From Planctomycetota bacterium (GTDB taxonomy: Bacteria; Planctomycetota; B15-G4; SIAN01): a DNA stretch of 64,000 nucleotides. A program made the position numbers and the translations under genes. The notes under the pieces were generated by a model. The model was not told the origin of the DNA. It was given only the letters and a program-made list of their open reading frames with translations, and did no database searches. Positions 11,999 through 34,246 of this stretch are shown here, one piece after another. Location of the stretch: assembly GCA_009691715.1 (NCBI GenBank), contig SIAN01000004.1, positions 13,101 to 77,100 of the forward strand, written 5' to 3'. How positions within the stretch are numbered: position 1 is the first letter of the stretch; every line of letters starts with the position of its first letter.

Positions 11999-12562
11999 TC
12001 AGCCGCGTTCGATGTCGGTCAGCAGAGCTGCGATCGCGGCGGTGAGCGGGTGCGGGAAGCAACTCGCGAGTCGTTCGTGGACGCGGCGGTAGTAGTCGAG
12101 CGTCGGCTCGCGGCCGCGGCGGAAGAGCCTCCAGACCTCGGCGCCATTCGTTGCCAGCAGTTGGCGCAGATCCGCGAGGTTGTGGACCTTGTCAGCGGCG
12201 GTCACGGCGCGTGCGCCAAGGCTCATCGAGCAGATCGCGTCGATCGTGTGCTGTTTGCGTTGCTCCCACGTGAGCGACTTTTCCTCGCTCACCTCGGCCA
12301 CCAGCGCCGCGACCGTCGAGCCGAGCAGAGTGGCGATCTCCGGCAGCCCGATCCCGCTGTCCTCCACCACGTCGTGGAGGATGCCGGCGGCGACCACGTC
12401 GACCTCGAAGCCGTGCCGCGCCAGCAGCACGCCGACGTGCAGCGGGTGAACGACGTAGGGCACTCCCGCCTGGCCTTTCCGTTCCTGACCGGCGTGAGCG
12501 CGCAGCGCCAGCGCGATCGCCAAGTCGAGACGCGGATCGCAGCCGTCAGGAAAGATCGTCAT
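11999..12562 (-). CDS. HD-domain phosphohydrolase (RelA/SpoT-HD-like)
   Basis: It contains the HD motifs LRAHAGQERK, HPLHVG and ILHDVVED. The start is at MTIFPDG. Confidence 0.7.
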   Translation of the reverse strand: MTIFPDGCDPRLDLAIALALRAHAGQERKGQAGVPYVVHPLHVGVLLARHGFEVDVVAAGILHDVVEDSGIGLPEIATLLGSTVAALVAEVSEEKSLTWEQRKQHTIDAICSMSLGARAVTAADKVHNLADLRQLLATNGAEVWRLFRRGREPTLDYYRRVHERLASCFPHPLTAAIAALLTDIERG

Positions 12563-12575
12563 CGCGGTTCGCCGG

Positions 12576-13421
12576 TCAGATCGTGACGCCGAAAACGCCC
12601 TTGAGACCGAAGGCTGCGACGATGGTGAGCACCACGAAGACGAGGACCAGGCCGGCCTCGCTGCCGAAGCTGAGATCGAGCCCAAAGCAGGGGAGCGGCC
12701 GGACTGGATACGACGTGAGTGCGATCTTCTGGAACCGCGAATCGGCGCCGAACGAGTTCTCACCGGGGTAGAGCAGCTGGTCGAGGAAGCCGTTCGAGCG
12801 GACCGGCGCGACCATCGGCGTGCCGGGAAGCGGGCCGACGTGGATCAGCTTCGTGACCGTCTCGCCGCCGCTGGTGAACTTCAGCGTGTGGACGCCCGGC
12901 AAGGTGGCCGCCAGCTTGAACGCCACATGGCCGCGTGCCGGCAGATGCACGACCCGGGAGCGCAGCTCAAGCCCGGGCGGCAGCTCGACGGCGGTGTCGG
13001 CGCCATCGCCCTTCGCGAGATCGAGCTCGGCGCGAACATCAACCACTGCGCCAACGTCGAGGGGCCGGATCCCCAGTCGCATCTGCATCTGCGCGAACAG
13101 CAGCACGAACGGGATCAGCATCACGAACATCGGCTTGAACTGCTCGCCGACGTAGCCGCAGAGCCAACCAAGAGTCTTGCCGAGCGAGCTGAAGACGACG
13201 CCGATGCTGTCACGGAAGAGCAGGATCGCGATGATGTTGCCCATGCAGCGATCCTTGAAGACCGCGACACGCTTCGCATTGGTGGTCCACTTCATCGCCA
13301 GCAGGGCCATCACGCCGAACAGCGCGCCGAGCACCAGCAAGCCGACCCACTCCGGCAGCGCCGCGAACGGCGCCCAGATCAGGTCGAACACCACCGCCAT
13401 CGCCGAATTGACCGCGTCCAT
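12576..13421 (-). CDS. Hypothetical membrane protein
   Basis: It has hydrophobic helices at both termini with a central soluble region. It lies in an operon-like arrangement downstream of the RHH gene. No recognisable family was found. Confidence 0.4.
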   Translation of the reverse strand: MDAVNSAMAVVFDLIWAPFAALPEWVGLLVLGALFGVMALLAMKWTTNAKRVAVFKDRCMGNIIAILLFRDSIGVVFSSLGKTLGWLCGYVGEQFKPMFVMLIPFVLLFAQMQMRLGIRPLDVGAVVDVRAELDLAKGDGADTAVELPPGLELRSRVVHLPARGHVAFKLAATLPGVHTLKFTSGGETVTKLIHVGPLPGTPMVAPVRSNGFLDQLLYPGENSFGADSRFQKIALTSYPVRPLPCFGLDLSFGSEAGLVLVFVVLTIVAAFGLKGVFGVTI

Positions 13422-13463
13422 CTCGCTTCGCACTCCGCGCAACGTGTCGCACCAAGCGTCCGC

Positions 13464-13667
13464 TCAGGAGATGTAGCCGAGCCCGCGCAGCTTCTCGCGC
13501 ATCTTCTCGGGGTCCTCGGTCCCGCCGGTGTCCATCGATGCCAGCTCGCGCTCGAGGATGTGGTTCACGAACTCGTCGAGCGAGCTGTAGCCCGCCGCCT
13601 CGGCGAACTTCTTCAGTTTCTCGAACACGTCCTTCTCGAGCTTGATCTTGTTGCCGCCGAACATGTC
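13464..13667 (-). CDS. Ribbon-helix-helix (CopG-like) small DNA-binding protein
   Basis: The 67-aa sequence MFGGNKIKLEKDVFEKLKKFAEAAGYSSLDEFVNHILEREL follows the RHH beta-alpha-alpha pattern. The C-terminus ...KLRGLGYIS is shared with the paralog at 20329..20589. Confidence 0.5.
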   Translation of the reverse strand, partial: DMFGGNKIKLEKDVFEKLKKFAEAAGYSSLDEFVNHILERELASMDTGGTEDPEKMREKLRGLGYIS

Positions 13668-13753
13668 TTGTCTCCATCGAGGCCGACCTCGCGCGGTGCG
13701 CGCGGCCGGAAGTGGTTGTGGGTGTCGCGAGGTCGTCGCCCCGCCATCGCTGC

Positions 13754-15685
13754 TCAGTAGAGGCTCTTGCCGCGCATGTCGGCCGTCGGCTTGACGCTGA
13801 AGTGATCGAGCAGGGTCGCCGTCACGTCGTAGAGGCACGGTTCAGTCGGCGACAGCTTGCGGCTCGACAAGAAGACGCCAGGGACGACTTCGGGCGCCAT
13901 CAAGTGGTTGCCGCTCCAGCGCAGTTTGTTGTCCTCGACGATCGGATCCTTGGGCTGCACCTGACCGAGCGCGGCGGTGTCGGACGCGCCGTATCCGCGG
14001 TCGTATCCGACCACGAGATCGGGTGCATGCTCGAGCTGTCCGCCGTGATAGGCCTCCTCGCGGAGGTCGACCCGGCGCACGACCTTCGCGCCGGTCTTCG
14101 GATCAACCAGCGCGAGCAGCTTGCCGCGGATCTCCGTGAGCAGCGCTAGGCGCTCCCCCTGAACGACGGAGCCTTCCTTCTCCCGCCCCTTCAGGTTCAC
14201 GTAGATGCCGTTGAAGCCCACGGCATAGGCACGGGTGGTGGCGCGGTCGATGCCGCCCTTCTCTGCGAGGGAGTAGACGCCTCGTGGACTCGCGGCCGCC
14301 TCCGCTGTGACCTGGAGATACCCCTCCTGCAACAGCCAGTTATTGAGGTTCACCTTGCGCAGGAACGGTGAGAAGCCGTGATCGGAGAGCACGACCAGCT
14401 CGGTCTCCATTCCGATCTTCTCGCGCAGGTGGCCGAGCGCCTGGTCCATCAGGACATAGGAGTCCTCGATCGACTTCGAGTACTTCGTCGCCAAGACCTC
14501 GTCGCGCGCCGGATGGCCGGGCTCGATGTGGCGCCACATCATGTGGCTGCGCAGATCGATGGTGGAGAAATAGAAGAACAGCAGCCCGCGGTCGAAGCGC
14601 TGCACCGCGTAGTCGAGCATCTTCATCCGCTCGTGATGGATGTCGTCGCAGTTCGAGATGAACTCGCGGTCGTCGAGCGTCCCTTCATCGAGCGCCTTGG
14701 TCTCTTCGGCCAGACCCTGGGTGTAGAACGGCCCGATCGCCTCGGCGAGATCGATCACCGCGGCGTCGTCCGGCGTCGAGATCGACATGCATGGGTTGCG
14801 CGGATCGATGTTGACCGGTGAGCAGTAGAGGCGCAGCTCCGGGTGCACCTGCTGCAGATAGAATTTCACCATGCCGTTCATCGATTCGGTGTAGAGCGGC
14901 AGGAAGGTCTCGAGCTCGAACGAGCAGGCGAGCCACTCGCTCCACTGCCCTTCTTCGAGCAGGCACGACTCGCCGTCCGCGATCTCGATCTCGACGATCG
15001 GCTGGTCGGGATCGATGAAGACCGAGAACGCACACTCGCTCTGCGGCACGACGTTCTTGCCCTCCGGCGGCGAAGCATGCGGGCTCGCCGGGCCGAAGAG
15101 CGTGGCGTCGACGCGCCCCTTCAGGTTCCTCACCTTGCTCCACTTGCCGCCGTGGATCTTGTCGAAGTTGTCCGGCACGTCGGTCGTGTAGTAGACGTAC
15201 ATGCCGTCGATGCCGCCCTGCAGGTCGGGCGTGCCCATGTCGGAAAGCGTCAACTGCTCGCTCGGCTGGATCGGGTAGGCCGCCGGCATCCGGTAGACCT
15301 CGCACTTCACGCCTGTCTCGCCGAGCAGATCCCAGAACGGCCGGCGCTCCTCCATCGCTCCCGACGAGCTGACCGGCAGGTAGGTCTGCGGATCGCGGTG
15401 CAGGAAGTCGAACACGCCGTGGCCGCCCGGATCCATGCCGGTGATGAAGTTCGACCAGGCGACCGGCGACTGCGGCGGGTTGCTGGTGCAAAGCGGCACG
15501 AAGGTGCCGGCATCCGCCAACGCCTTGAAGTTCGGCATCCGGCCGGCGTCCATGTACTCGCGCAGCAGGTTCGGATCCATCCCGTCGATGCCGACCACGA
15601 CCAGCTTTCTGCCGTCCTGTGCGACCGTTTCGCTGCACGAAACGAACGAGAGCGCAGCGGTCGCGGCCGTCGCAGCCGCCAGCAT
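13754..15685 (-). CDS. Alkaline-phosphatase-superfamily phosphodiesterase (type I phosphodiesterase/nucleotide pyrophosphatase-like), paralog 1
   Basis: It has VVGIDGMDP, TSNPPQSPVAWS and SDHGF motifs, and a lipoprotein-like N-terminus (MLAAATAATAALSFVSC). It is paralogous to 15747..17930 and 21664..24168. Confidence 0.7.
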   Translation of the reverse strand: MLAAATAATAALSFVSCSETVAQDGRKLVVVGIDGMDPNLLREYMDAGRMPNFKALADAGTFVPLCTSNPPQSPVAWSNFITGMDPGGHGVFDFLHRDPQTYLPVSSSGAMEERRPFWDLLGETGVKCEVYRMPAAYPIQPSEQLTLSDMGTPDLQGGIDGMYVYYTTDVPDNFDKIHGGKWSKVRNLKGRVDATLFGPASPHASPPEGKNVVPQSECAFSVFIDPDQPIVEIEIADGESCLLEEGQWSEWLACSFELETFLPLYTESMNGMVKFYLQQVHPELRLYCSPVNIDPRNPCMSISTPDDAAVIDLAEAIGPFYTQGLAEETKALDEGTLDDREFISNCDDIHHERMKMLDYAVQRFDRGLLFFYFSTIDLRSHMMWRHIEPGHPARDEVLATKYSKSIEDSYVLMDQALGHLREKIGMETELVVLSDHGFSPFLRKVNLNNWLLQEGYLQVTAEAAASPRGVYSLAEKGGIDRATTRAYAVGFNGIYVNLKGREKEGSVVQGERLALLTEIRGKLLALVDPKTGAKVVRRVDLREEAYHGGQLEHAPDLVVGYDRGYGASDTAALGQVQPKDPIVEDNKLRWSGNHLMAPEVVPGVFLSSRKLSPTEPCLYDVTATLLDHFSVKPTADMRGKSLY

Positions 15686-15746
15686 CGCCAGTCGAAGATC
15701 TCGCGAGTTCACCGATCCGTCTCCGATCACCGTTCCGTCTCCAATT

Positions 15747-17930
15747 TCAGCGGGCGGCAGGAGCCGGAACACGTTTCCGCGGCGCCGCGGCAGCAGGCGC
15801 ACCACCCGGCGGCGAACTGCGCTCGCCGAAGAGGCGCTGCCCTTGCATGTAGGTCGGCGGCTTAATCCCAAACAAGTCGAGCACGGTCGGCGCGAGGTCG
15901 AGGATGTTCGGCGTCGCGGTGTTGATCTTGCGGTTGCAGAAGAAGACGCCCGGCACGATGCGCGGGTCCATGCAGTGATCGCCGCTCCAGCTCTTGGTGT
16001 TGTCGCTGAAGACGTTCTCGCTGGTGCAGCCGACCGCGCAGTCCCACGAGTGGCGATAGCCCGCCTCGTAGCCGATCAACAGGTCGGGCGCCTCGTAGCT
16101 ATAGGGCCCGGCGAAGTTGGCCTGCGTGTCGAACACCTCGCGGATCGCGCGAATGCCGTCTCGCTTGCTGTCGAGAAGGTGGCGCAGCTTGTCGGCGATC
16201 TCGTTCTTCAGGCGGTGGAGCTCGTCGCCGTCATCGACGATGCCCTTCACCTCGCGGCCCTTGCGATTGATGAAGACGCCAGTGAGGCCCATCGAGAACG
16301 CCTTGGTCTTGCTCCAGTCGACGCCTTCGAACCAGTCACCGCCGGTTCGCTTGCCGTCCTTCAAGACGAGATAGCCCTCGTCACGCAGCCACGCATTCAA
16401 GTTGACGCCGCGCTGGAACTGCTTGAAGCCGTGGTCCGACATCACCACGAACACCGTGTTCTTGTCGGCGCACTTCGCGCGCGCGCGTCCGACGAACTCG
16501 TCGCACCAGCGGTAGACGTCCTCGACCGCGTTCTTGTGCAGCACCGTGTCCTTGCCGACGTTCGCCGGGTGCTTCGGGTCGAGGTAGCGGAAGAACATGT
16601 GCTGGATGCGGTCGGTCGTGTCGAAGACCGTCGTGATGAAGCCGTTCTTGGTCTTCGCCACGGCGTCCCAGAACATCGCCTCGCGTTCCTGTCCGTAAAG
16701 GTACGCCTGCTTCAGGAACGCCGCTTCGTCGATGCGCCGTTCGTTCAGCGCCCAGGTGTCCTCGGCGAGGCCAAGCGTGCCGAACGGGCCGATGATCTTG
16801 GCGAGGTAGGCCGAATAGACCTGCGGCTCGCTGATCGGGAGGATCGGATTGGCCGGATCGATGTGGACCGGCGTGACGTAGAGCTCGACCTCGGGATCAG
16901 CCTTCTGCAGATAGAAGCGGGCGATGCCGTTCATGCCCGGAAAATCGACGCGCAGCCACGGCGAGTAGTCGCCGAGCTTGAGCTCGACCGTCTCGCGCCC
17001 GATCTTGAGCTTCGCGCCCTTGCGATCCGCGGCGAGCGTCAGCTTGAACGGGCAGGAGAGCTTCTGACTGCCGATCGACGGACCTTCGATCGCTGCCTCG
17101 ATCACGTCGCCGACGCGGCGCACCTCGGTCTCGGTGCCGCCGGCGTTTTCGGCACCCATCCCGGCCGTCTCGTCCTGGATGCGGCCGCTCAACTTCGTGG
17201 TGAAGAACGAAAAGCTGCCCTGCGAGCCCTTCAAGTCGGGCACACACATGCCGGAGAGCAGCACGCCGTTCTTGAACTTCTCCGGCGGGAAGGTGATCGG
17301 CACGCGCTGGATCGCGCTGCTCACCCAGTTGTCGCCGAGGATCTTCCAGAACGGCTGGCTGCGTCGCAGCATGCGATAGAACGACTTGTGGAAGGTCTTC
17401 TTGAAGATGCCGAAGCCGAAGGTCGTCTCGCTCTCCGCGATCTTGGCCGACGACAGGACCGGCATGTAGGTGCAGACGTCGCGCGTGATGAAATCGAAGA
17501 TCCCATGCTTGCCGGGATCGACGCCGGTCATGAAGCTCGACCACGCGACCGGCGACATCGACGGCGTCGCCGTCGTCAGCGGCAGGAAGATCCCGTCGTC
17601 GGCGAGACGCTTCAGGTTCGGCAGCTTGCCCTCGGCCATGAAGCGGTTCGCGAGCTCCGGATCCATGCCGTCCATGCCGACGATCACGACCCGCTTCGCC
17701 TTCTGCCGCGAGCGCCGGTCCGCCGTCTTGAACCAGCGGATCGTCATGCGCACCGGCAGGATCAAGAGCGCGCCGAACGCCGCCAGCAGCGCGAACGCCA
17801 CGACGAACACGGCACCGGCGGCCGCAATGCCCGCGCCCGGCCCGATGTAGCCGTAGGCCGTAGTCGGCCCGAAGCAGACCACCGCGAACAGGGTGGCAGC
17901 GATCAGTCGGAGCTTCAGCGAACGGGCCAT
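15747..17930 (-). CDS. Alkaline-phosphatase-superfamily phosphodiesterase, paralog 2 (N-terminal TM anchor)
   Basis: It has VIVGMDGMDP, TTATPSMSPVAWS and SDHGF motifs. The N-terminus has a signal/TM segment containing AYGYIGPGAGI. The start was verified at MARSLKL. Confidence 0.7.
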   Translation of the reverse strand: MARSLKLRLIAATLFAVVCFGPTTAYGYIGPGAGIAAAGAVFVVAFALLAAFGALLILPVRMTIRWFKTADRRSRQKAKRVVIVGMDGMDPELANRFMAEGKLPNLKRLADDGIFLPLTTATPSMSPVAWSSFMTGVDPGKHGIFDFITRDVCTYMPVLSSAKIAESETTFGFGIFKKTFHKSFYRMLRRSQPFWKILGDNWVSSAIQRVPITFPPEKFKNGVLLSGMCVPDLKGSQGSFSFFTTKLSGRIQDETAGMGAENAGGTETEVRRVGDVIEAAIEGPSIGSQKLSCPFKLTLAADRKGAKLKIGRETVELKLGDYSPWLRVDFPGMNGIARFYLQKADPEVELYVTPVHIDPANPILPISEPQVYSAYLAKIIGPFGTLGLAEDTWALNERRIDEAAFLKQAYLYGQEREAMFWDAVAKTKNGFITTVFDTTDRIQHMFFRYLDPKHPANVGKDTVLHKNAVEDVYRWCDEFVGRARAKCADKNTVFVVMSDHGFKQFQRGVNLNAWLRDEGYLVLKDGKRTGGDWFEGVDWSKTKAFSMGLTGVFINRKGREVKGIVDDGDELHRLKNEIADKLRHLLDSKRDGIRAIREVFDTQANFAGPYSYEAPDLLIGYEAGYRHSWDCAVGCTSENVFSDNTKSWSGDHCMDPRIVPGVFFCNRKINTATPNILDLAPTVLDLFGIKPPTYMQGQRLFGERSSPPGGAPAAAAPRKRVPAPAAR

Positions 17931-18086
17931 GCATTCCTCGGCGGGCCTTCGATGCCAACGAAACAAGCGGCGGCGCCGGCCGGCGCGAGCCGCAGGAACG
18001 TGGAAGCAGCGATCGTCGGAACAGTGAACGTCAGATTCAACCCTCGGGCTTGAGCCCCCTGCGGCCGGTGGCGAAGCGACACCGCG

Positions 18087-18476
18087 TCAGCGGGCCGTAC
18101 CGTCCACCCGACGCGCGCCTCGATCCGGAAAAGTCGGCCGGAAGCAGCACTCGAAGACGAACACCATGGCGATCGCGGCCGCCACGGCACCCACAAGCGC
18201 CCCGTGCTCGGTGAGCCATTGGACGAGGGTCTCATCCCAGGTTGGGGTGCGGATCCCGATGCCCGGTGGGATGTAGGCCTGCGCTTGCGGCGCCCCCAGC
18301 GACGCGGCCCCGGCGACGCACAACAGCCACAGAGCCTGCAACCGACGCCGCCGCGGGCCATGCGACGGAAACGGAAGCGGCGGGGCGTTCGGTCGCGCGA
18401 TGAACGGCATGACCTGGCTCCTTGGCGCCCCGGCCGGCGCAGACGGCTTCGACGGAGTCGCCGTCGAGCCGTCCAC
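18087..18476 (-). CDS. Possible small membrane protein resembling the N-terminal module of phosphodiesterase paralog 2
   Basis: It contains AQAYIPPGIGI followed by a TM helix and a basic tail, the same architecture as the first 80 aa of 15747..17930. It could be a remnant or leader-like ORF. This call is weak. Confidence 0.2.
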   Translation of the reverse strand: MDGSTATPSKPSAPAGAPRSQVMPFIARPNAPPLPFPSHGPRRRRLQALWLLCVAGAASLGAPQAQAYIPPGIGIRTPTWDETLVQWLTEHGALVGAVAAAIAMVFVFECCFRPTFPDRGARRVDGTAR

Positions 18477-18495
18477 GTCAGCGAGTCCGAGCGGG

Positions 18496-19101
18496 TCAGA
18501 TGAAGCCCTTGGCCTTCAGCGAGCGCATCGCCGCGGCCTCGGCGGCCTGATCGACGCCGTCGCCGCCGCCCTGCTTGATCAGGCCGCGCGCCTCGAGCGC
18601 TGCCAGCACGCGCTCGTAGCTCACGTCCTGGCTTTCGCTCGCGGTGTTGCACTTCACTTCGGGGCTCGTCGGCGGCTCGTACGGATCGTCGACGCCGGTG
18701 AAATTCTTGATCTGGCCGGCGCGCGCCTTCTTGTACAGGCCCTTCACGTCGCGCGCTTCGAGCGTGTCGAGGTCGCACTCGGTGTAGACCTCGAAGAAGC
18801 GCCCGATCTTCTGGCGCTGCTCGTCGCGCGTGTCGCGGTAGGGCGAGATCGCGGCGGTGATCGCCACGACGCCGTTGCGCGTCAGCAACTTCGCGACGTA
18901 GCCGATGCGGCGGATGTTGGTGTCGCGGTCTTCCTTGCTGAAGCCGAGACCCTTGCTGATCGTCGTGCGGAACTCGTCGCCGTCGAGCAGTTCGACCTTC
19001 ATGCCGCGCTCGAGCAGCTCATTCTTGATGCGTTCCGCGAGCGTGGACTTGCCCGAGCCCGAAAGCCCGGTGAACCAGAGCGTGAAACCTTCCATGTCCA
19101 T
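18496..19101 (-). CDS. cysC: Adenylylsulfate (APS) kinase
   Basis: It contains [22 protein letters not shown] (P-loop) and is a canonical 201-aa APS kinase. It lies 8 nt downstream of sat. Confidence 0.9.
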
Positions 19102-19109
19102 CGTTCCTT

Positions 19110-20264
19110 TCACTTGGCCTTGAGGGCGTTGATGAGAATCTGGGCGATCTCGGGGCGGGTGAACTCGACCGGCGGGATGGTGCCGGCACGCAGCATGTCG
19201 CGCACCTGCGTACCGGAGAGGTTGATGCGCTCTTCCGGCGTGGCCGGGCTCGACTTGGTCGACGCCATGCCGTTGGTGCGCTTGCACCAGAACGAGTTCT
19301 CGAACTTGAGCAGGTTGATCCCGATCTCGCCGGGCGAGTACTCGTCGAAGATCTTCTGCGCGTCGTAGCTGCCGTAGTAACTGCCGACGCCGGCATGGTC
19401 GCGACCGACCAAGAAGTGGCTGACGCCGTAGTTCTGGCGGCAGATCGCGTGCAGGACCGCTTCGCTCGGCCCGCCGTAGCGCATCGCCTGCGGATAGACG
19501 ACCAGCGCCGTGCGCTCCTTCGGGTAGTAGCTGGCCAGAAGCGCCTCGTAGCACTGCATGCGGACATCGGCCGGGACGTCGTCGCTCTTGGTCTCGCCCA
19601 TCAGCGGGTGGAGCATCAAGCCGTCGACGATCTCGAGCGCGACCTTGGTCAGGTACTCGTGCGCACGGTGGATCGGGTTGCGCGTCTGGAACGCGGCGAC
19701 CGTCTTCCAGCCCTTCTGCTTGAACAGCACGCGCGTCTCGACCGGGTCGAGGCGGCGGTTGTTGTACTTGTCGTACTTGAGGCGATTGACGACCGAGATC
19801 CGGCCACCGAGGTAGGTGTCGCCGATCGAATCGAGGTAGCCGACGCCCGGGTGCGCCTTGTCATCGGTGCGCAGGACCTTCCGCGCTTCGTCGCCCTTGT
19901 CCATCTTCCACTTCGCCGCGAGGTGGAGCACGGCGAGAAGTTGCCCGTCCTGCGTCTCGAGCGCGACGTCACTGCCTTCCTTGAACTGACCCGCGTCGTC
20001 ACCCGGCTTGACCGAAAGGACGATCGGCACCGTCCACGGCAGGCCGTTCTTCAAGCGGCGCGTTGCAAGCACGGCCGCGTAGTCGGCCTGCTCCATGAAG
20101 CCCTCGAGCGGGCTCATGGCACCGACGGCGATCATGTCGACGTCGGCCATTTCGCGCGCGTTCAACACGACCTTGTGGAGCTTCGGCGCCAGGCCGAGGA
20201 GGCGGTCGCGCTCGCCACCTTCCACCACGCGATTCACCAGCCGTCCACCATGCGGTGCGATCAT
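19110..20264 (-). CDS. sat: Sulfate adenylyltransferase (ATP sulfurylase)
   Basis: It contains [11 protein letters not shown] (HxxH motif) and the GRDHAG motif, with length and fold consistent with single-chain Sat. Confidence 0.9.
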
Positions 20265-20328
20265 CGATGTCCTCTTCGCTGTCCTGGTTGCTGCCTTGGG
20301 TCACGAAACGCCGCGGGATCGCGGCGCG

Positions 20329-20589
20329 TCACAGGTATCCGAGATTCTTCAGCTTCTGCTTCACGGCCGCGAGGTCGCTCGCGTTGAAGTCCTCGGCCGC
20401 CTCGATCGCGCTCGCCGACGCGCCAGCGGCCGCTGCGGCTGCGCCCTTCAGCTCCGCTTCGCCGAGCAGGTCGCGCAGGACGAACACAATGAAGTCGGTC
20501 GGCGACGAGAAGCCTGAGTTTTCGATCACCAGCTGGACCTTGCGGTAGAGCGGGCGCGGGATTTTGACCGTGACCTTGCTCTCTCGCAT
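20329..20589 (-). CDS. Ribbon-helix-helix (CopG-like) small DNA-binding protein
   Basis: The 86-aa sequence MRESKVTVKIPRPLYRKVQLVIENSGFSSPTDFIVFVLRDLL is a clear RHH. The C-terminus ...KLKNLGYL is shared with the paralog. It is the first gene of the RHH-sat-cysC arrangement. Confidence 0.55.
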   Translation of the reverse strand: MRESKVTVKIPRPLYRKVQLVIENSGFSSPTDFIVFVLRDLLGEAELKGAAAAAAGASASAIEAAEDFNASDLAAVKQKLKNLGYL

Positions 20590-20644
20590 CGGACCCTCAC
20601 GTGGGATTGCGGGCATCTCGACACACGCTGGGGTGCGGGAGGAA

Positions 20645-20688
20645 CGCACTCCAATCGCACTCCAATCGCACTCCAATCGCACTCCAAT
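20645..20688. repeat. Perfect tandem direct repeat, 4 x 11 bp (CGCACTCCAAT)
   Basis: Read directly from the sequence: cgcactccaat cgcactccaat cgcactccaat cgcactccaat. It lies in the divergent intergenic region 56 bp upstream of the RHH gene start and 175 bp upstream of the lipoprotein gene. Confidence 0.9.
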
Positions 20689-20861
20689 AAGGCGCCATCT
20701 AGATACCGCCCGTTTTCTTGATGTCAAGCCGTCGGTCGCCCGCTGAGCCGCCGCCATGAACTGAGGTACGGTTCCCCGCCGCTGCCGGCGTTGACGGGTG
20801 CGATGGGTCGCCGTCGAACGCCCGGTACCCTCGCGCCCCCGAATCCCCCAGGAGCCTGCCC

Positions 20862-21437
20862 GTGATGCGTAGGTCGATCGCTGTCTCCCTCCTCCTTGCG
20901 TTTGCTGGGTGCGGTGACAAACCAGAATCGGGAGGCAACACTGCCTCCGCCCCTACCGCCGGTAAATCCGCTGCGCAGCTCCTGAGCGACGCCGAAACTG
21001 CGGAGCAGGCGCAGGATTGGAAGGCGATGCTTGCCTGCGCCGACGGCGCGCTTGCCGACGCCAAGGCGACCGGCGAAGAGAAGCAGCAGGCGTGGCTGAT
21101 CAAGATCGCCGCGACCGCCCACACGAACGGCGGCGATGCCGCGAAGGGTGCGATCACGGCAATGAGCGCGTCGAGCGACGTTCCGTCGGCGTCGAAGCTG
21201 GTGAGCCTTGCGACCGATCTCGTCGAAGCGGACCTCGCCGCCGTCGCCGTTGACGTTGTGGCGGCGGCTGACGCGAAGTACGGCAGCGACCCGGACGCGA
21301 AGAAACACCTCAAGAAGGTCGCCAAGATGTGCAAGGCGAAGCTCGAGGAGAGCGGCGACGCCGGCGCGCTCGCGCAACTGCAGGCCCTCGGCTACCTGAG
21401 CGCGTCGGACGACGAAGAAGAGATCGAGGACAGTTGA
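20862..21437 (+). CDS. Lipoprotein, Ala-rich helical
   Basis: It has a signal peptide with lipobox LLAFAGC. The C-terminus ALAQLQALGYLSASDDEEEIEDS contains the same LGYL motif as the two RHH proteins. Confidence 0.55.
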   Translation: MMRRSIAVSLLLAFAGCGDKPESGGNTASAPTAGKSAAQLLSDAETAEQAQDWKAMLACADGALADAKATGEEKQQAWLIKIAATAHTNGGDAAKGAITAMSASSDVPSASKLVSLATDLVEADLAAVAVDVVAAADAKYGSDPDAKKHLKKVAKMCKAKLEESGDAGALAQLQALGYLSASDDEEEIEDS

Positions 21438-21663
21438 GCCGGCTGCGGCACTTCGCCGTGCCACGCATCCGATCCTGACGCAACGATCGCGGGCGGCCCC
21501 TCGCAGCCCGTTGGCGCAGTCGCCGCGAGTCCGGCGAGTGGATTTCGAGTCGGGACGAGGAGGAGGTTCGAAGCCAACTCCCCAGAGAGTTGTCGAGAAT
21601 CTCCGACGAAGTCCCGGCTTGAAAGACGCCGCCCGCGCTGCTTTCCGATGCTTCGCCTGTCAG

Positions 21664-24168
21664 CTACTCCGGCGCCACCAGCGACTCGCGGTTCGCGCGA
21701 CCGCCGACGTGCGCCTTCGCCTTCGCTTCGAGCCCGGCGAGCGGGATCACGTGGCCGTCCATGTCGTCCGGTACCGGCACGCCGTGGATCGCAAGAATCG
21801 TCGCCGCGAGGTCCTGGAGGTGTGGCGCCGCGCCGGCCGCGACCTTCTTGTTGCTGAAGAAGATGCCACGCACGAGGTACGGGTGCACCGAAGTGTGGTC
21901 GCCCGACCAGCGGTTCTTGTTCGGGAAGACGATCGCTTCCTTGCTGCGATCGCCCATCGCCGTGCCCCAACCGACGCGGTAGCCGAAGTTGAATCCGACC
22001 TGAATGTCGGCCGCGCCTTCGGTGCATCGGCCCTTCGCGTCGCGCAGGTCGGTGGCGAACGGTCCGGCGAGGTAGTCGCCGCGCTTCCACGCGCCCTTGA
22101 ACACCTGACGATCGTTGGACGTGGTCTCGTTGGGATTCCGGTAAGCCAGCATCTTCGCGATCATCTGGTCGCAGACGGCGTCGTAGTCCGCAGCGTCGAC
22201 GCTTCCGTTCGGCTCACGGCCCTTCAAGTTGACGTAGATGTTCCCGATCCCGACCGAGTAGGCCTTGGTCTTTTCCCAATCGACGTACATCAGGAACTGC
22301 TTGTTCGTCGTCGGCTTGCCGTCCGGCTCCTTGCGCAGCGTCATGAAGCCCTGGTCGATCAGCCAGGCGTTCAGCTCGACCTCTTCGCGGAACGGGCTGA
22401 AGCCGTGGTCAGAGCAGACCATCAGCGTGCAGTCGCCGAGGCTTCCTGACTCGATGCGCTGCATGACGATCCCGATGGTCTTGTCGACCTCCGCGTAGAT
22501 CGCCGGGATCGCGTCCTTGGCCAAGATCGTCTGCGGGCCGAAGCGGATGGTCTTGTTGGCCTCTTCGGCCTTCCACTGCGGGTGCTTCTCATCGAAGAAG
22601 CGATACATCATGTGGCAGACGCGATCGGTCTCGCCGAAGACCTGGAACAGCGTGGTCCAGTCGTTCTTGTCGAGCTGCGCCTCGAGCATCTTGCGGCGCC
22701 ACTGGATCGTGTCCCAGATCGCCGACATGAACGACAGATCACCGATCTCATCGTCCTTGAGCGCGTGCGTCTGGCACGACCAGCCGATGGTGTCGAAGTA
22801 GCCGACGTCCTTCACCAGCTCGGCGCCGAACGCGACCGGCGAAGTGACCGGCATGTTGGGCGGCATGCCATCGGTCGCGACCGTGATCGCCGGCAAATAG
22901 AACTTCACGTCCTCGGCGTCGGGATTGCACTGCGATACGTGCAGGTGAGCGGTCGCCTTCATCGCGAAGGCATTCTCGATCTCGAACGTGACCGGGATGT
23001 AGGGCGCCCACTCGCCCTCGGCCAATGTCACTTCGCGCCCAGCCAGCGCGAACTTGATCGTCTTGTTGGCCTTGTCCACCCAACCAACGAGCGGGACGGA
23101 AGCGTTGCCCTTCTCCCCTTCCCACTTCTTCTTGTCGTTCTTGGCGGTGTTCAATTCCTTGGTCAGCGTCTGGTGCTCCGCCGTTCCCGGCTCGACGGCC
23201 TTCCACTTGTCCTCGATCTCCTTCACCTTGCGCGCCCACTTCTGCGCCTCGACGAAGTTCTCGGGCCCGGAGAGCTTGGTCTCGAAGTAGCCGATTTTGT
23301 TGCCGTCGGCGCACTTCGAGCAGCCCTTGGTGAACGTGAAGCTCTTGTTCTTGCACTTCGGGCAGATCGTCCTGAACTTCATCACCTGCCCGCCGTTCCC
23401 GGTCGGGCGCGGGAAGTCCCACTCGCTGTTGGTGTAGACGAGGTACGTGCCCGGTCCGCCGCGCACGTCGGGAACCGACAGTCCGGCGAGGAGCTTCGTG
23501 TTCGGGCCGGCGGCCGCCGGGTAATTGCACGCCACCTGCAGAACGCGTGACGACAGGTTCGCCGCGTCGAGCAGGTCCCAAAAGTTCTTGACCGCGAGGT
23601 CGTTCTGGTGCGACGGCATCGTGAAGCCGTCTTTCCACGGCAGGTCCGCTTCGCGCGAGTAGCCGATGGTCGGGATCACGCTGCCGATCAACTTCGGCTG
23701 CTTTTGGTCGTCCATGATCTCGGACCATCGGAACGTGCGGCGGATGAAGCCGAAGATGTTGGTCTTGCCGGGATTCTGGCCGCTGTTGACCGACGCCCAC
23801 GCGACCGGCGACTCGGCCGGGTTGGCGGAGCCGAGCGGCAGGAACGATCCCTGCTCCATCAGCTTCTTCGCCCATGGCATCCGCCCTTCGGCGATGAACT
23901 GCTCGGCGAGATGGTGCGACGCGCCGTCGAAGCCGATCATCACGACCCGCGGTGCGGCGACCGCTGTCGCTTTCGCTGCCGGCGCCGTCACTGCCGTCGG
24001 CACCGCCGCGTTCGCCGGCGCGGGATCCCCGGACAGCGCCGTCACTGGCGCCGCGGAGAACGGCGCGGCCGCGAGCGGTAGGGCGTTCTGTGGCCAGCAC
24101 GCCACCGCCGCGCTCGCCAGCGCCACCGTCGCCAGCAGTCCACCCACGAACCAGTGCATCGCTCGCAT
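21664..24168 (-). CDS. Alkaline-phosphatase-superfamily phosphodiesterase, paralog 3 with zinc-ribbon insertion
   Basis: It has VVMIGFDGASHH, GSANPAESPVAWAS and CSDHGFSPF motifs. An inserted C4 segment (ICPKCKNKSFTFTKGCSKCADG) is absent from paralogs 1 and 2. It has an N-terminal TM anchor, and a GGAGA SD precedes the start at M47. Confidence 0.7.
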   Translation of the reverse strand: MRAMHWFVGGLLATVALASAAVACWPQNALPLAAAPFSAAPVTALSGDPAPANAAVPTAVTAPAAKATAVAAPRVVMIGFDGASHHLAEQFIAEGRMPWAKKLMEQGSFLPLGSANPAESPVAWASVNSGQNPGKTNIFGFIRRTFRWSEIMDDQKQPKLIGSVIPTIGYSREADLPWKDGFTMPSHQNDLAVKNFWDLLDAANLSSRVLQVACNYPAAAGPNTKLLAGLSVPDVRGGPGTYLVYTNSEWDFPRPTGNGGQVMKFRTICPKCKNKSFTFTKGCSKCADGNKIGYFETKLSGPENFVEAQKWARKVKEIEDKWKAVEPGTAEHQTLTKELNTAKNDKKKWEGEKGNASVPLVGWVDKANKTIKFALAGREVTLAEGEWAPYIPVTFEIENAFAMKATAHLHVSQCNPDAEDVKFYLPAITVATDGMPPNMPVTSPVAFGAELVKDVGYFDTIGWSCQTHALKDDEIGDLSFMSAIWDTIQWRRKMLEAQLDKNDWTTLFQVFGETDRVCHMMYRFFDEKHPQWKAEEANKTIRFGPQTILAKDAIPAIYAEVDKTIGIVMQRIESGSLGDCTLMVCSDHGFSPFREEVELNAWLIDQGFMTLRKEPDGKPTTNKQFLMYVDWEKTKAYSVGIGNIYVNLKGREPNGSVDAADYDAVCDQMIAKMLAYRNPNETTSNDRQVFKGAWKRGDYLAGPFATDLRDAKGRCTEGAADIQVGFNFGYRVGWGTAMGDRSKEAIVFPNKNRWSGDHTSVHPYLVRGIFFSNKKVAAGAAPHLQDLAATILAIHGVPVPDDMDGHVIPLAGLEAKAKAHVGGRANRESLVAPE

Positions 24169-24396
24169 GCGCAGTCTCTCCAGGCGCGCCCGAGATGAAG
24201 CGGCGCAATGGGTTGCTCTTTCGGGCTTGAGGCGGCGCAGAGTAAAGCGACCCGTGTCCGGACGATCGCGCGCTCCTGCGTCGATTCGGCACAAGGGGCG
24301 CGCCACGCTGCGCCGCCGGCCCCGTGGCGCAATGGGACGAAGCTCGGGGACCGATGTTTGCGGTGGGCCGCCGCTTTCCTCCCGGAGGCTCGATTG

Positions 24397-27300
24397 ATGA
24401 AGCGACTTGGGCCTTGGCTCGTGGCCACGATCGTTGCGATCGGGTGTTTCGCCTGGTGGAGTTCACGCAAAGGCGACCCGCCACGACTCGCCCCGGCCGC
24501 TCCGCTCACCGCTGCCGACGCCGCCGCAGATTCGACCGCCGACTCGACCGCCCCCTCGATCGCGCCTGCTGCCGACCGCGCCACCGACCCGGCCCCCACC
24601 TCGAGCGACGCCATCGTCGCGGACGTGATCGGCACCGGGAGCCTGCGGATCGAAGGGCAAGTGGTCTTCGCCGCCGATGGACGCCCCGCCGCTTTTGCGC
24701 GGGTCCGCGCGTTCGACCGTTTCCCGGCCTTGACGCCACGCTCGATGCGCGGCGGCGCGGATGGCGTCGAGTCGGAACCGACGACGCACCGGCACTCCGG
24801 ACAAGCGGTCCACGACCTCGCCGAACGAGACGCCTCGAACTTCGCTCGGAACGAGGACTTCGACGACGCCACCGACGATGCGGAACGCACGCCGAAACCA
24901 CCCGCCGAGGCGCTCGCTGAAACGACCGCCGACGCGACCGGCGCTTTCGTCCTCGCCGGCCTCACGCGCGGCACGGTGCACGTCGATGCGATCGCCGAAT
25001 TTGCGTCGTGCGAACAGCCGCAGGTCATTTCGCTCACGGACGAGTCGACCGTCGACTCGATCCGGCTCCTGCTCACCGATGGAGCCGCGCTGCGCGGGCG
25101 CGTCGCCGATCCGTCCGGCGCGCCGGTCGCCGGAGCGCGCGTGGTCGCCACACCGCCCTTCGATCCATTCGCAATGTTCGCCGCCGGCGGAATGCAGATG
25201 CGCGAGCCGTGGATCGCGCTGACCGACGCATCCGGTCGCTTCGCGCTGCCGGGACTCGCGGCGGGTCTCACGCTCGACCTCACGGCCACCGCCACTGGCT
25301 TCGCACCATCGGCACACCAGAAGGTCGTGACGGCGCTGCGCCAGACCGTGCAAGCGGATCTGATCCTGCAGAAGAGCGGGCGCATCGACGTGATCGTGCA
25401 CGACTCTTCAGGCCAGCCGCTCACCAACGTTGCCTGCACGCTCGGCGCAGCCGAACTCAAGCTCGATGAGCTCGCGACCAGCGCGGAGTCGTTTCGCGGC
25501 ACGCGACGCCAACTGGACCCGCAGGGGCGTGCGACCTTCGAGGGACTCGCCGTCGGCAAGTGGCAGATCCGCATCGATCGCGCGCCATGGCTCGAAGCCA
25601 AGCGCGCGGTCGAACTGCGCGAGACGGGCGAGACGGCGACGGTCGAGTTTGTGGTCGAGCTCGGCAAGGAGCTGCAAGGGCGGGTCGCCGCCCGTGACGG
25701 CACTCCGCTCGCCGGTGCGCGCGTCACGGCCGTCGAGCCGCCCTCGATCATGAACGTGATGCGCGCCGCGCGCGGTTCTGGCCGCCGCCAGGCCACGACT
25801 GACGCCGACGGGCGCTTCCTCCTTTTGGGACTCGGTGCCGGGCAGTTCGACGTGACCGCTCGCGCCATCGGCTACGACGAGGCAACGGTCAGTGCAGCAG
25901 CCGGCGGCCCGCCGATCGAGATCGTGCTGCCGACGCGCGGCGCGTTCGAGGGCATCGTCATCTCGCAACAGTCGGGAAAGCCGCTCCACGAGTTCACGCT
26001 CCACCTCGAGCGCAAGAGCACCGGCGGTGGCGGCATGTTCGACGTCGCCGACATGCAGCGCACCGTGCCGCTCTCGCTGGCGTTCGCCCATGAGCAGGGC
26101 AAGTTCCGCGTCGCCGGTGTCGCGCCCGGCGAACTGCGCATCGCCATCACGGCTGCCGGCCACGGCCGCTGGCAGGGCGCCTGGTTCACGCTCGCGGACG
26201 GCACCACGCGCAAGGGGATCATCGCGACGCTTGGTCCGGAGGCCGTCATCGAGGGCATCGTCGTCGCCGCCGCGGACGGCGCCCCCATCGCCGGCGCGCA
26301 ACTGCGCCTCGTCGCTGCGGACCAGGCGATGATGCAGAAGCTCATCGCAGGCATGCTCGGCGACACCGCCGCCACCAGCGGCGCGGACGGCCGGTTCCGC
26401 ATCGGCGAGCTCGGCGCTGGATCGCACAAGCTCGCGGTGAAGAAGGACAGATTCGTCGAGACCGAGCCGCCTGCGATCACGCTCGCGGAGGGCGAGACTT
26501 CGGCGCTGCTGCGCATCGAGCTCGCGTCGGGTGCCGAGATCTTCGGCAACGTCGTCGACGCCGACGGCCACCCGCTCGCCGGCGCGAGCCTGATGTGCCA
26601 GGACATTGCACGCATGGCGATCCGATCGGCCAAGAGCGATGCCGCCGGCAACTACCGGTTCGAGGGTCTCGCGCCCGGCAACTTCGCGCTCACCCGCATG
26701 CCAGCGGAGATGGCGATCGGGAGCGACAAGTTCTTCGAGCAGATGCAGGGGCAGATCGAGACGCGCACGATCAAACTCAGCGCGGGCGAATCACTGCGCG
26801 TTGATTTTGGGGCGCAGATCAAAGGCAGCGCCGTCCTGGTCGGACGCGTCGTCTCCGGCGGAGCGCCCGTCCCCGACGCGCTGGTGCAGGTGATCGCCAG
26901 CGAGCAGGGCGGCAAAGTCGGCAGCGTGGGTGGCGGGGTGGCGATGGGCACGTGCGACCACGACGGTCGTTTCCGCGTCGAGCGCTTGCACGCCGGCCGA
27001 GCGTTCGCGCAGGTGAATCTCGGCGATCCAGGCGGCGGTGGGATGAACGCGGTGCTGGTGCCGGTCCTGCTGGAAGCTGGCGCTACGACCGAGGTGACGC
27101 TCGAGGTGCCGGCGGCGAGCGTCTCCGGCGAAGTCCTCGAGGTAGGAAGCCGCAAGCCGTTGGCCGGAATCGCGGTTTACGTTGGAGCAGCGCCCGACGC
27201 ACCGACGGCCGGCATCGAGATGGCGATGCGCCGCTCGCTTGCGGTGCGCACCGACGCGAACGGCAAGTTCCGCCTCGACCACGTGCGGCCGGGCCGCTGC

Positions 27301-27972: not shown

Positions 27973-28056
27973 CCGGGCGACGGCGTTGGAACCGGCGCGT
28001 CGGTGAGTCGTGTTCGGTAGTCTCCCTGCCCCGTCCTGCTCTGGATCCAAGGAGGA

Positions 28057-29217
28057 TTGTCGATGTTGTCGCGTTCCGCGAGCGCAGCCCTGATCCTGTC
28101 CCTAGTCGGCGCCACGATCGCGTCGGCCCAGACACCCGCCCCGACCGATCAGGGCACGCCACCGGCCGCACCGGCCGCGGCGCCAGCAGCAGCAGCGCCG
28201 CAGGCCGCGCCGCAAGGCTCCCCGCGCCACACCGCGACGGTCACGCTCGGAACGGCGACGCTCACGCTCGAGCACGGCCAGCCGCCATGGAACGATCAAC
28301 GACTCGGCCAGATGGCGCAGATGGCGCAGCAGGGTCAGGCGTGGCGCATGGGCTCGGAGGGTGCGACGACCCTCGAAGTGACCGGCGGGCCAGTCTTCTT
28401 CGGCGACGAGCTGGTCCAGCCAGGTCGCTATGGCATGAACCTGCAGCCGGCGGGCGAAAACGCCTTCAGCTTCGTCGTGTTCGAGCCGCTCCACCTCGAT
28501 CAATCGCCGCAGATGCTCGGCGATGAGCCGAACCAGCTGATTCCGACCGTGTTCAAGGGCGACGCGGCCGATCTCACGCCAGCGCTGGTGCTCGACTTCG
28601 TCGCGGCCGGTGATACCGCGGCCTGCACACTGTCGTGGGGCCCGCTGCGTGCGAGCGCGCCGTTGGCGGCCGCCGGCATCTCGACGGCCGAGATCGAGCT
28701 GAACGGCAACCCGACGGACACCACTTGGTACCGCCGCGCGCTCGCCGAGGGCTTCGACTGCTCCAAGCCGATGATCGCCGGCAAGATCGACTTCGCGATC
28801 GACGAGCAGGATTGCTCGATGAACGTCTACGTCATGCTCGAAGGCGACCAACTCGTCGCCGTCATGCGCAATCGCGAACGCGAACAGGCCGAGGCGCAGA
28901 CCCTGTCGCTCGAAGAAGGCATGAAGCGATTCGACGCGGCGATCCAGCAGTTCGGCGAGCTGGCGGCGGCGCAGATCGCGCCGTTGAAGCGGCAGGCACA
29001 GCGTCAGCTCGTGAAGAACGAGCTGACGCTCGAGGACACCGTGAACCTCCCCGACAACTTGAAGTTCTCGGCACCGTGCGAGGCCGGCAAACCGGGCGCA
29101 CTGGCCTGCGAGATCTTCCAGACGCGCCGTTCGATCAATCTCGAGGTGCTGCTCGGCGGAAAGAAGGGCGTGATCCGGATCGACGAGAGCCTGTTCGCGC
29201 TGAAGAGCTCGTCCTGA
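28057..29217 (+). CDS. Secreted hypothetical protein
   Basis: A strong AAGGAGG SD precedes the start. It has a signal peptide (AALILSLVGATIASAQ) and a Pro/Ala-rich linker, with no recognisable domain. Confidence 0.55.
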   Translation: MSMLSRSASAALILSLVGATIASAQTPAPTDQGTPPAAPAAAPAAAAPQAAPQGSPRHTATVTLGTATLTLEHGQPPWNDQRLGQMAQMAQQGQAWRMGSEGATTLEVTGGPVFFGDELVQPGRYGMNLQPAGENAFSFVVFEPLHLDQSPQMLGDEPNQLIPTVFKGDAADLTPALVLDFVAAGDTAACTLSWGPLRASAPLAAAGISTAEIELNGNPTDTTWYRRALAEGFDCSKPMIAGKIDFAIDEQDCSMNVYVMLEGDQLVAVMRNREREQAEAQTLSLEEGMKRFDAAIQQFGELAAAQIAPLKRQAQRQLVKNELTLEDTVNLPDNLKFSAPCEAGKPGALACEIFQTRRSINLEVLLGGKKGVIRIDESLFALKSSS

Positions 29218-31486: not shown

Positions 31487-31489
31487 CGC

Positions 31490-34242: not shown

Positions 34243-34246
34243 CGCC

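Follow-up and report, generated by a model that had tools for sequence, protein, structure and literature searches.

Sulfate-activation genes sat and cysC lie beside a conserved alkaline-phosphatase-superfamily gene cluster in Planctomycetota, with a probable role in sulfation

The stretch of DNA analysed here, called the window, comprises 64,000 nucleotides of contig SIAN01000004.1 (positions 13,101 to 77,100 of the forward strand, assembly GCA_009691715.1) and belongs to the ordinary chromosome of an uncultured Planctomycetota bacterium known from a metagenome-assembled genome (MAG). Its subject is the gene pair sat-cysC, for the synthesis of 3'-phosphoadenosine 5'-phosphosulfate (PAPS), together with the small ribbon-helix-helix-like (RHH-like) gene that precedes it and three large genes of the alkaline phosphatase (AP) superfamily, PDE_A, PDE_B and PDE_C, that flank it. 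Genes were called by third-position GC (the window is about 70% G+C) and then annotated with Pfam and NCBIfam. The features of this region are the following.

21664-24168, minus strand: PDE_C, third paralog (29% identity to PDE_B), 834 aa, with a lipoprotein-type signal; syntenic in the three closest relatives (L001-3)
20645-20727, minus strand: promoter-like element and tandem repeat, with TTGACA (20727-20722), 16 nt of spacer, TATCTA (20705-20700) and then the repeats
20329-20589, minus strand: RHH-like small protein, 86 aa, 64 nt upstream of sat, with the tail ...KQKLKNLGYL
19110-20264, minus strand: sat, ATP sulfurylase of the homo-oligomeric type, 384 aa (PUA_2 and ATP-sulfurylase, E=1e-89)
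18496-19101, minus strand: cysC, adenosine 5'-phosphosulfate (APS) kinase, 201 aa (Pfam APS_kinase, E=7.5e-62)
15747-17930, minus strand: PDE_B, AP-superfamily enzyme with the fold of nucleotide pyrophosphatases/phosphodiesterases (NPPs), 727 aa (Pfam Phosphodiest, PF01663, E=1e-33)
13754-15685, minus strand: PDE_A, paralog of PDE_B (36% identity), 643 aa, with a lipoprotein-type signal peptide

The unit of sat and cysC led by an RHH-like gene was found where the preliminary description of this DNA, made from the sequence alone, had placed it, on the minus strand, and both enzymes score above curated NCBIfam cut-offs. Sat reaches 509.5 bits (cut-off 387) and 414.7 bits (cut-off 322.95) against sulfate adenylyltransferase (NF003166 / TIGR00339), and CysC 261.5 bits (cut-off 244) against adenylyl-sulfate kinase (NF002059 / TIGR00455). 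The active-site motifs of Sat (HRAH, of the QxRNPxHxxH type, and GRDHAG) were read from its translation, and the P-loop GLSGSGKST is intact in CysC. The gap of 8 nt between the genes (19102-19109), also given in that description, holds for the ATG at 19101 and becomes 14 nt with the ATG at 19095 of the public gene call. The absence of cysH, cysI/J and cysD/N was borne out as well: domain searches identified PAPS_reduct, NIR_SIR, CysD/N and CysQ in no called gene of the 64 kb, and tblastn of CysH, CysD, CysN and CysQ queries against the window gave nothing, the CysN query matching SelB only. The 3.8 kb beyond the left end, like the 64 kb, contain no cysH, sir or cysteine-synthesis gene. A dissimilatory (reverse) Sat was dismissed, as cysC is tightly coupled and aprAB is absent.

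The three large Phosphodiest genes flank sat-cysC on the same strand, PDE_C upstream and PDE_B and PDE_A downstream; neither they nor the module that follows them figured in the preliminary description. The bimetallo site is complete in all three (D87, S126, D440, H444, D499, H500 and H652) and invariant in 33 sequences. The nucleophile is the Ser of an S-P motif; its distance to T-G, nine residues, is that of NPPs, and an H-G-I motif follows. A formylglycine sulfatase (PF00884) was rejected as a reading of these proteins: the nucleophile region is T-P-S-M-S-P-V-A-W, with no C/S-x-P/A-x-R motif and no Arg at +4. The AlphaFold2 model of PDE_B (pLDDT 83.7, pTM 0.83) retrieved with Foldseek, as best matches, Xac NPP, PafA, SPAP, PhnA and ENPP1/3 at 10-14% identity, the probability being 1.00 for NPP, PafA and PhnA, and with PF01663 this places the protein in the NPP clade. 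NCBIfam holds no curated family that matches PDE_B, and its homologs, at least 8,000 proteins with a length near 720 aa and for the most part from Planctomycetota, bear no annotation beyond 'AlkP superfamily phosphohydrolase/phosphomutase'. The core fold and the bimetallo site with an alkoxide nucleophile are shared with NPPs and their relatives (Xac NPP 2gsn/7n1s, PafA 5tj3, SPAP 3q3q and PhnA 1ei6); the differences are the nucleophile (Ser instead of Thr), a large beta-rich insertion of about 200 residues, present in the PDE_B model, and a YIGPGAG membrane anchor. As compared by eye, the PDEs presumably have Phe in place of the Asn by which NPPs touch the phosphoryl group of the substrate.

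The N-terminus of PDE_B comprises a signal or transmembrane segment, the sequence AYGYIGPGAG, a transmembrane helix and a basic stretch, and this AYIGPGAG-type arrangement is conserved in orthologs; by the positive-inside rule the catalytic domain would face the cytoplasm. The orthologs of PDE_A and PDE_C carry lipoprotein or signal peptides, and PDE_A is predicted to be exported. An open reading frame (ORF) between cysC and PDE_B (orf129/orf107, 18087-18476, minus strand) was set aside as a doubtful gene, having no homolog in L001-3, no Pfam match and ambiguous codon statistics. It resembles the N-terminus of PDE_B (AQAYIPPGIGI, transmembrane helix, basic stretch) and may be a remnant or spurious.

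The 86-aa protein upstream of sat shows at its N-terminus the beta-alpha-alpha pattern of a ribbon-helix-helix, with Pfam matches that are all sub-threshold (RHH_8 E=0.031, RHH_4 E=0.083, Arc E=0.24); the profile of its family matches the RHH domains of NikR in register, also below threshold (E=0.026-0.2). The family is small and rare, with 189 representative clusters among 1.84e9 and the tail kept in 91 of the 150 best, and in Planctomycetota and Krumholzibacteriia (L054) its gene immediately precedes sat. Just past the -10-like element and about 60 nt upstream of this gene, ATTGGAGTGCG forms four perfect tandem 11-nt copies (20645-20688). The array is unique in the window and the top one within 12-32 kb (Tandem Repeats Finder score 88, 100% matches), and a 19-mer taken from it occurs 3 times where 0.07 occurrences would be expected. 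In relatives, too, the RHH-sat genes are preceded by this promoter and, after it, 2-5 phased GGAG(T/C)G repeats, in some cases along with inverted copies: L001-3, Rohdeia mirabilis Pla163 (L081), L083, L089, L097, L109, L116, L139 and the Krumholzibacteriia locus L054. The TTGACA/TATCTA element was missed by a strict promoter scan and found by reading the sequence; the scan of the window gave no promoter or terminator above chance, so that it does not set the limits of the operon. No Rfam family (riboswitch or leader) matches the repeat region.

The four 11-nt repeats look like an operator and are a candidate binding site of the RHH-like protein, which is probably an autoregulator of the sat operon: as the product of the first gene it would repress its own operon through an operator phased at 11 bp. 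The label of RHH regulator, proposed in the preliminary description, is thus backed better by the conserved operator-like repeat ahead of the 86-aa gene than by the protein sequence, whose matches stay below threshold. With the repressors NikR, MetJ, Arc and CopG the system shares the N-terminal pattern, in register with NikR, and phased operator-like tandem repeats that overlap the promoter; it differs in that the RHH-like protein has no C-terminal sensor domain, having instead a short acidic linker and an LGY[IL] tail. One locus (L093, ORF ending at 2501) contains a CysC fused to an RHH-like domain with an LGYLE tail, directly upstream of sat. This fusion raises the question whether the RHH-like module is solely a DNA-binding regulator.

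Conservation was followed from the Sat side in the 80 genome loci whose Sat is closest to that of the window. Close relatives are three Planctomycetota MAGs only (L001-3, 87-89% identity), which have in common the synteny RecQ...PDE_A-PDE_B-cysC-sat-RHH-...-PDE_C-...-sulfotransferase; all other loci are at 58% identity or less. No cysH or sulfite reductase gene is linked to sat in the window or in L001-3, and the arrangement of an assimilatory operon was therefore not found. Beside the 80 sat genes, cysH was identified in 20 loci, cysC in 16 and both in only 2; an ECG[LI]H motif screen had given a cysH count that was probably too low (Bacillus-type loci were unflagged), and tblastn raised it to 20. 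This near-exclusivity argues that the sat-cysC arrangement is distinct from the assimilation arrangement of sat with APS reductase. A PF01663 gene adjoins sat in two Chloroflexota loci: in L056 (1365-4040) a single ORF of 891 aa encodes both Sat and an AP domain, with cysC and genes for sugar modification downstream, and in L035 the sat and AP ORFs overlap by 4 nt. Among the 120 best homolog clusters of this AP domain, 7 or more contain Sat-AP fusions (P0124, P0129, P0130, P0155, P0157, P0179 and P0183).

From the PDE side, a metagenome scan with a PDE_B alignment as anchor yielded 80 loci of 45-55% identity, the total count of PDE-anchored loci being 82. The core of two PDE genes, a small gene of the small66 type and a membrane protein gene is nearly invariant. 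Of the 52 loci whose upstream sequence is long enough, 15 have both sat and cysC in the flank, usually in the order RHH, sat, (AP), cysC, PDE, PDE, small, membrane protein; by a rough estimate that was not computed, chance proximity of sat-cysC in a genome of Mb scale would be well below 1%. One or more genes of the PAPS pathway (Sat of two clades or CysDN, CysC, CysQ-like, small sulfotransferase) are present in 35 of the 82 loci, many of which are incomplete. Unbiased clustering of all flanking ORFs, with Pfam on the representatives, brought out three further recurrent neighbours: CysD and CysN, which stand in for Sat in 4 loci, CysQ-like proteins in 6-7 loci, and a sulfotransferase of about 207 aa that abuts the module in 14. 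Three non-orthologous ATP sulfurylases occupy one position, a pattern for which inheritance alone is a poorer explanation than selection of the linkage more than once. The other members of the module in the window, with the divergent gene upstream, are listed below.

13464-13664, minus strand: small66, second RHH-like protein, 66 aa, with the tail ...REKLRGLGYIS
12576-13421, minus strand: DUF106/EMC3/Oxa1-like polytopic membrane protein, 281 aa, with an inserted Ig-like domain
11999-12562, minus strand: HD_4 (RelA/SpoT-type HD) hydrolase, 187 aa (public gene call, PF13328)
20865-21437, plus strand: divergent small lipoprotein-like gene, 190 aa, with ...LQALGYL near the C-terminus

Among the 50 PDE loci that extend 3 kb or more downstream, 48 contain the gene for small66 and 44 the DUF106-like gene, which in Planctomycetota accompanies the PDE pair almost without exception. 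The profile of the DUF106-like family matches the archaeal YidC-like protein MJ0480 (PDB 5c8j, E=7.9e-10), which places it in the Oxa1 superfamily; 10 of 41 members match Pfam EMC3_TMCO1 (PF01956, best E=1.4e-5), the window member alone being below threshold (E=0.018). An HD_4 gene is present in 6 PDE loci, and that of the window is 40% identical to the gene in the same position in Pla163. Homologs or analogs of the lipoprotein-like gene, with ...LRSLGYVE tails, occupy the same place in L001, L002, L083, L085-87 and L096-98. The core of the cluster is accordingly described by two NPP-fold AP enzymes, one predicted to be membrane-anchored and one exported, a second RHH-like protein, the DUF106/Oxa1-like protein and the HD_4 hydrolase.

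The corresponding genes of the cultured Rohdeia mirabilis Pla163 run sulfatase, small RHH-like, Sat, short AP, CysC, PDE, PDE, 65-aa ORF, 285-aa ORF, HD_4, and next to them, on the opposite strand, are genes of the CysQ-like and rhodanese type; the Sat of Pla163 is only 31.5% identical to that of the window. The exopolysaccharide (EPS) locus L163 of KSB1 contains Wzc-like, Sat, AP464, CysC, sulfotransferase, AP448, epimerase, sulfotransferase, epimerase and Wzx, its APs being short and soluble, and appears to be the clearest case of a sat-AP-cysC triad that serves polysaccharide sulfation. A different locus (L165, 8001-16762) presents a pair of short soluble AP paralogs beside genes for a Na/Pi-cotransporter and PhoU, with no sulfur genes, a context that hints at a phosphate-related activity of the AP family.

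Ordinary assimilation has to be weighed at this point: the PAPS would be used by a PAPS reductase encoded elsewhere, and the neighbourhood would be incidental or merely co-regulated by sulfur supply. This Sat type does stand next to cysH in 13-20 of the 80 genomes, and one cysH-like ORF, the single one in all PDE loci, lies about 5 kb away in L136; in E. coli-style genomes, moreover, activation and reduction genes are in separate operons. Against this stand the lack of any cysH, sir or cysteine-synthesis gene in the region searched, the rarity of cysC together with cysH beside this Sat type (2/16), and the recruitment by the cluster of CysQ-like genes and sulfotransferases, with a sat-AP-cysC triad inside an EPS and sulfotransferase cluster. 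The Bacillus-type assimilation operon, cysH-cysP-sat-cysC, has the same Sat and CysC families in tight linkage; in the window cysH, cysP and sir are missing, the regulator is RHH-like instead of CymR, CysB or an S-box, and the other neighbours differ. We regard this explanation as unlikely.

A further trait shared by these genes is a C-terminal tail. In the window the motif L-[KR]-x-[LK]-G-[YF]-[ILV] ends the RHH-like protein, small66 and CysC (3 of 649 ORFs, 0 in shuffles), the coding ends being 20329-20360, 13464-13490 and 18496-18570, respectively. In CysC it belongs to a C-terminal extension of about 25 aa, kept in L001-3, and analogous tails are carried by the CysC of L109, L116, L139, L154 and the KSB1 locus L163. 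In many of the loci L081-L163 proteins of at least six unrelated families end in the pattern L-[KRQ]-x-[LK]-G-[YF]-[ILVM](x), among them RHH-like proteins, small66, CysC (in several architectures, KSB1 included), CysD, PF00884 sulfatases and the divergent lipoprotein; E. coli CysD ends in ...KKRQGYF. The tail may be a docking peptide, an idea on which its presence on cytoplasmic and exported proteins alike has to weigh.

The gene from which a sulfation role was originally proposed lies about 9 kb from the pair, and the features on this side are the following.

29241-30215, minus strand: PAPS-dependent sulfotransferase, 324 aa (Sulfotransfer_3, E=6.9e-34)
30215-31486, minus strand: Wzx-type flippase (Polysacc_synt), whose stop overlaps the sulfotransferase start by 1 nt
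Between 39533 and 47763: GT2, GT4, GT2 and PMT_2 genes

The sulfotransferase, flippase and glycosyltransferases named in the preliminary description were all recovered by Pfam matches. Mutation of the phosphosulfate-binding (PSB) motifs, which would have left the sulfotransferase inactive, was looked for and is absent: the 5'-PSB motif PRSGTT, the 3'-PSB motif RDPRDVVAS and a Glu base aligned to the catalytic Glu of TPST2 are intact, and the protein falls in the sulfotransferase families (PF13469 / PF00685). Its nearest solved relatives are TPST2 and the CurM/OLS sulfotransferase domains, and its best NCBIfam match, NoeE, is sub-threshold. It is the sole recognisable consumer of PAPS in the window, as sat-cysC is the sole source. 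The pair sat-cysC does not appear to form one unit with this gene. Between sat and the sulfotransferase operon lie PDE_C and two plus-strand genes (24358-29217), for a 1204-aa CarboxypepD_reg-repeat protein and a DUF2911 protein, and the linkage is found in close relatives only. Of 364 detectable homologs of the sulfotransferase, three at 46-50% identity on long contigs were inspected: none has sat or cysC within 10 kb, two (L167, L168) have a flippase immediately upstream, and two keep the set found at 29-48 kb of the window (GT2, PMT/PMT_2, LPG_synthase_TM, FAD oxidase, AMP-binding and acyl-CoA dehydrogenase). Since these homologs keep the flippase and glycan set without sat-cysC, the sulfotransferase seems to belong to a conserved glycan or lipid cluster of its own; conversely, the window-type sulfotransferase is absent from all 82 PDE-anchored loci. 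Its proximity to sat-cysC appears to be lineage-specific, and by context sat-cysC would be neither an assimilation operon nor part of the sulfotransferase-flippase operon. The gene set of the sulfotransferase (29241-47763; L166, L168) recurs in other phyla and includes an AMP-binding ligase and a gene resembling FAD amine oxidases or desaturases, which suggests a conserved uncharacterised pathway for a sulfated glycolipid or glycan.

Systems of this kind are known from other bacteria. In rhizobia the PAPS-synthesis genes nodPQ are part of the Nod-factor cluster, with nodH. In Vibrio sp. KMM 8419 cysNDC and sulfotransferases are located inside the locus of a sulfated capsular polysaccharide (PMC11641403). 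The presence of PAPS genes with sulfotransferases in glycan clusters is thus already known, and the window resembles both systems in having activation genes apart from cysteine biosynthesis and near a sulfotransferase and glycan export, and probably also in PAPS as a sulfuryl donor. It differs in having Sat instead of CysDN, in a pair that is not contiguous with the sulfotransferase but 9 kb away, and in AP-superfamily, RHH-like and DUF106-like neighbours that are invariant here and lacking there.

The pair could be, literally, a second and dedicated copy feeding the sulfotransferase, flippase and glycosyltransferase genes 9-28 kb away, all of them working as a single island for a sulfated surface polymer and the AP genes being bystanders. 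The sulfotransferase has kept its motifs and shows translational coupling with a flippase of the Wzx type, it lies within 10 kb of sat-cysC in the window and in L001, and precedents exist in Vibrio and in KSB1 L163, where a distant homolog (28% identity, E=6e-13) is one gene from the flippase in the same cluster as sat-AP-cysC. The linkage is nevertheless unconserved beyond close relatives, whether followed from the Sat and PDE side or from the sulfotransferase side; opposite-strand genes intervene and groEL splits the 'island'; and the invariant neighbours are AP genes, even fused to Sat, and not the sulfotransferase. We consider this explanation rather unlikely. The term glycan island is in any case a loose one, as the glycan genes are present together with groEL, rpoD, selB, ksgA and recQ.

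Scavenging offers a different role for the flanking enzymes: AP esterases in periplasm and cytoplasm would free sulfate (or phosphate) from organic esters, Sat-CysC would capture the sulfate and the RHH-like protein would be a starvation switch. The AP superfamily consists mostly of hydrolases, PDE_A and PDE_C have export signals, canonical PF00884 sulfatases were identified near the PDE module in 11 loci and in Pla163, L165 ties the family to Na/Pi-cotransport and PhoU, and Planctomycetota are rich in sulfatases. The PDEs, however, have an NPP-type Ser-Pro nucleophile instead of the formylglycine motif C/S-x-P-x-R, a cytoplasmic Sat-AP fusion is unlike a scavenging enzyme, and cysC, the CysQ-like genes and the abutting sulfotransferases are left unexplained. 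This possibility appears to us quite improbable.

The interpretation that we favour, as reasonably probable, is that sat-cysC forms a regulated PAPS operon, the upstream arm of a conserved AP-superfamily cluster centred in Planctomycetota, with PAPS as a sulfuryl donor. It is not mutually exclusive with the three alternatives given above, nor are these among themselves. As the core repeatedly recruits interchangeable parts of the PAPS pathway, PAPS is most likely the donor for an envelope or glycoconjugate product. That the conserved partner of the operon is the AP module and not the sulfotransferase 9 kb away points to accessory machinery for sulfation in bacteria that is not yet described. 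The donor role proposed in the preliminary description is in this respect upheld in part, by the lack of assimilation genes nearby, the near-exclusivity of sat-cysC and sat-cysH, and the precedents in Vibrio KMM 8419 and KSB1 L163. In the mechanism proposed, Sat makes APS, CysC phosphorylates APS to PAPS, and PAPS would be used mainly for sulfation of an envelope product and not for reduction. The AP enzymes may be accessory hydrolases of the PAPS cycle, removing inorganic pyrophosphate (PPi) to pull the Sat reaction and/or 3'-phosphoadenosine 5'-phosphate (PAP); alternatively, they could act on the sulfated product or in the turnover of phosphate or sulfate esters. The shared C-terminal LGY tails would tether the components together.

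An analogy for the hydrolase role is offered by the fusions of ATP sulfurylase with inorganic pyrophosphatase in stramenopiles and haptophytes (PMC2275785). In both cases Sat is joined or coupled to a domain of the phospho-anhydride hydrolase type, and the logic would be to pull the unfavourable APS-forming equilibrium. Here the domain is an NPP-fold AP, a predicted hydrolase, and not a family I or II pyrophosphatase, and the window relatives are separate genes of 640-830 aa whose products are membrane-anchored or exported.

Several points weigh against the favoured interpretation. The window is part of a MAG contig, and cysH or sir may lie elsewhere in the genome, in which case PAPS would serve also, or only, for assimilation. 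Some 70% of the PDE-module loci lack a PAPS gene within 10 kb, which together with L165 indicates a wider role of the AP enzymes, possibly related to phosphate. We know of no AP-superfamily enzyme in the PAPS cycle, and the literature searched gave no account of PAPS genes associated with this superfamily. The exported PDE_A and PDE_C fit poorly with a cytoplasmic hydrolase of PPi or PAP, no homolog of the small module-associated sulfotransferase is present in the window, and a non-conserved spacer of 565 nt separates cysC from PDE_B, a shared transcript being only assumed. Finally, the orthology of the PDE pair between Planctomycetota and the a and b types of KSB1 failed a check: the equivalence of the KSB1/Chloroflexota a-type with PDE_B and of the b-type with PDE_A was withdrawn, as among all PDE-cluster ORFs most second PDEs also score as a-type.

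A bolder extension, which we hold to be doubtful, is that the AP pair, the DUF106/Oxa1-like, HD_4 and RHH-like proteins constitute an undescribed membrane machine for sulfation or sulfate-ester turnover, with docking by tails, a tail-gated repressor and a new AP step. In such a machine the tail L-[KR]-x-L-G-Y-[ILVM] would anchor CysC, the CysD of CysDN variants and the RHH-like proteins to the AP enzymes, and the RHH-like protein upstream of sat would be a repressor whose DNA binding depends on engagement of its tail. The AP step would be removal of PPi or PAP at the membrane, or transfer of the sulfuryl group via a sulfo-Ser intermediate.

Other traits of the window are the following. The stretch with the PDE, sat and cysC genes (12001-24000) has a G+C of 0.63-0.665, against about 0.69-0.72 in most of the window. 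Among the housekeeping genes (groEL, rpoD, selB, ksgA and recQ), the one for a SelB-type selenocysteine elongation factor (54814-56769, minus strand) implies selenoprotein use by the organism, and the sole tRNA is tRNA-Pro(CGG) (53325-53402). A minus-strand segment (48265-53202) contains a B12-binding radical-SAM protein of 834 aa, a NifX-like protein and a fusion of metallo-beta-lactamase and 2-hydroxyacid dehydrogenase, homologs of the two parts of this fusion being located a few kb from sat-cysC in four Chloroflexota/Limnocylindria loci (L024, L039, L043 and L080).

The sulfation of polysaccharides, lipids and peptides by bacteria is poorly mapped, and is usually predicted from sulfotransferase genes with or without cysDNC or sat-cysC. 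In at least four phyla (Planctomycetota, Chloroflexota, KSB1 and Krumholzibacteriia) PAPS genes are here tied to an uncharacterised branch of the AP superfamily, sometimes by fusion, and also to a rare RHH-like family with a conserved operator-like repeat. In the literature searched no report was found of the association of PAPS genes with an AP module, of the Sat-AP fusion, of the RHH family with its operator or of the shared tail. The main audience would be specialists in sulfur metabolism and in the bacterial envelope, and the cultured carrier Rohdeia mirabilis Pla163, which has an extensive extracellular matrix, makes the hypothesis directly testable. If the AP enzyme does carry out a step of by-product removal or of transfer, it would be the third standard component of the sat-cysC module, and this would allow better prediction of sulfated products from genomes and improved PAPS-regeneration cassettes for biotechnological sulfation.

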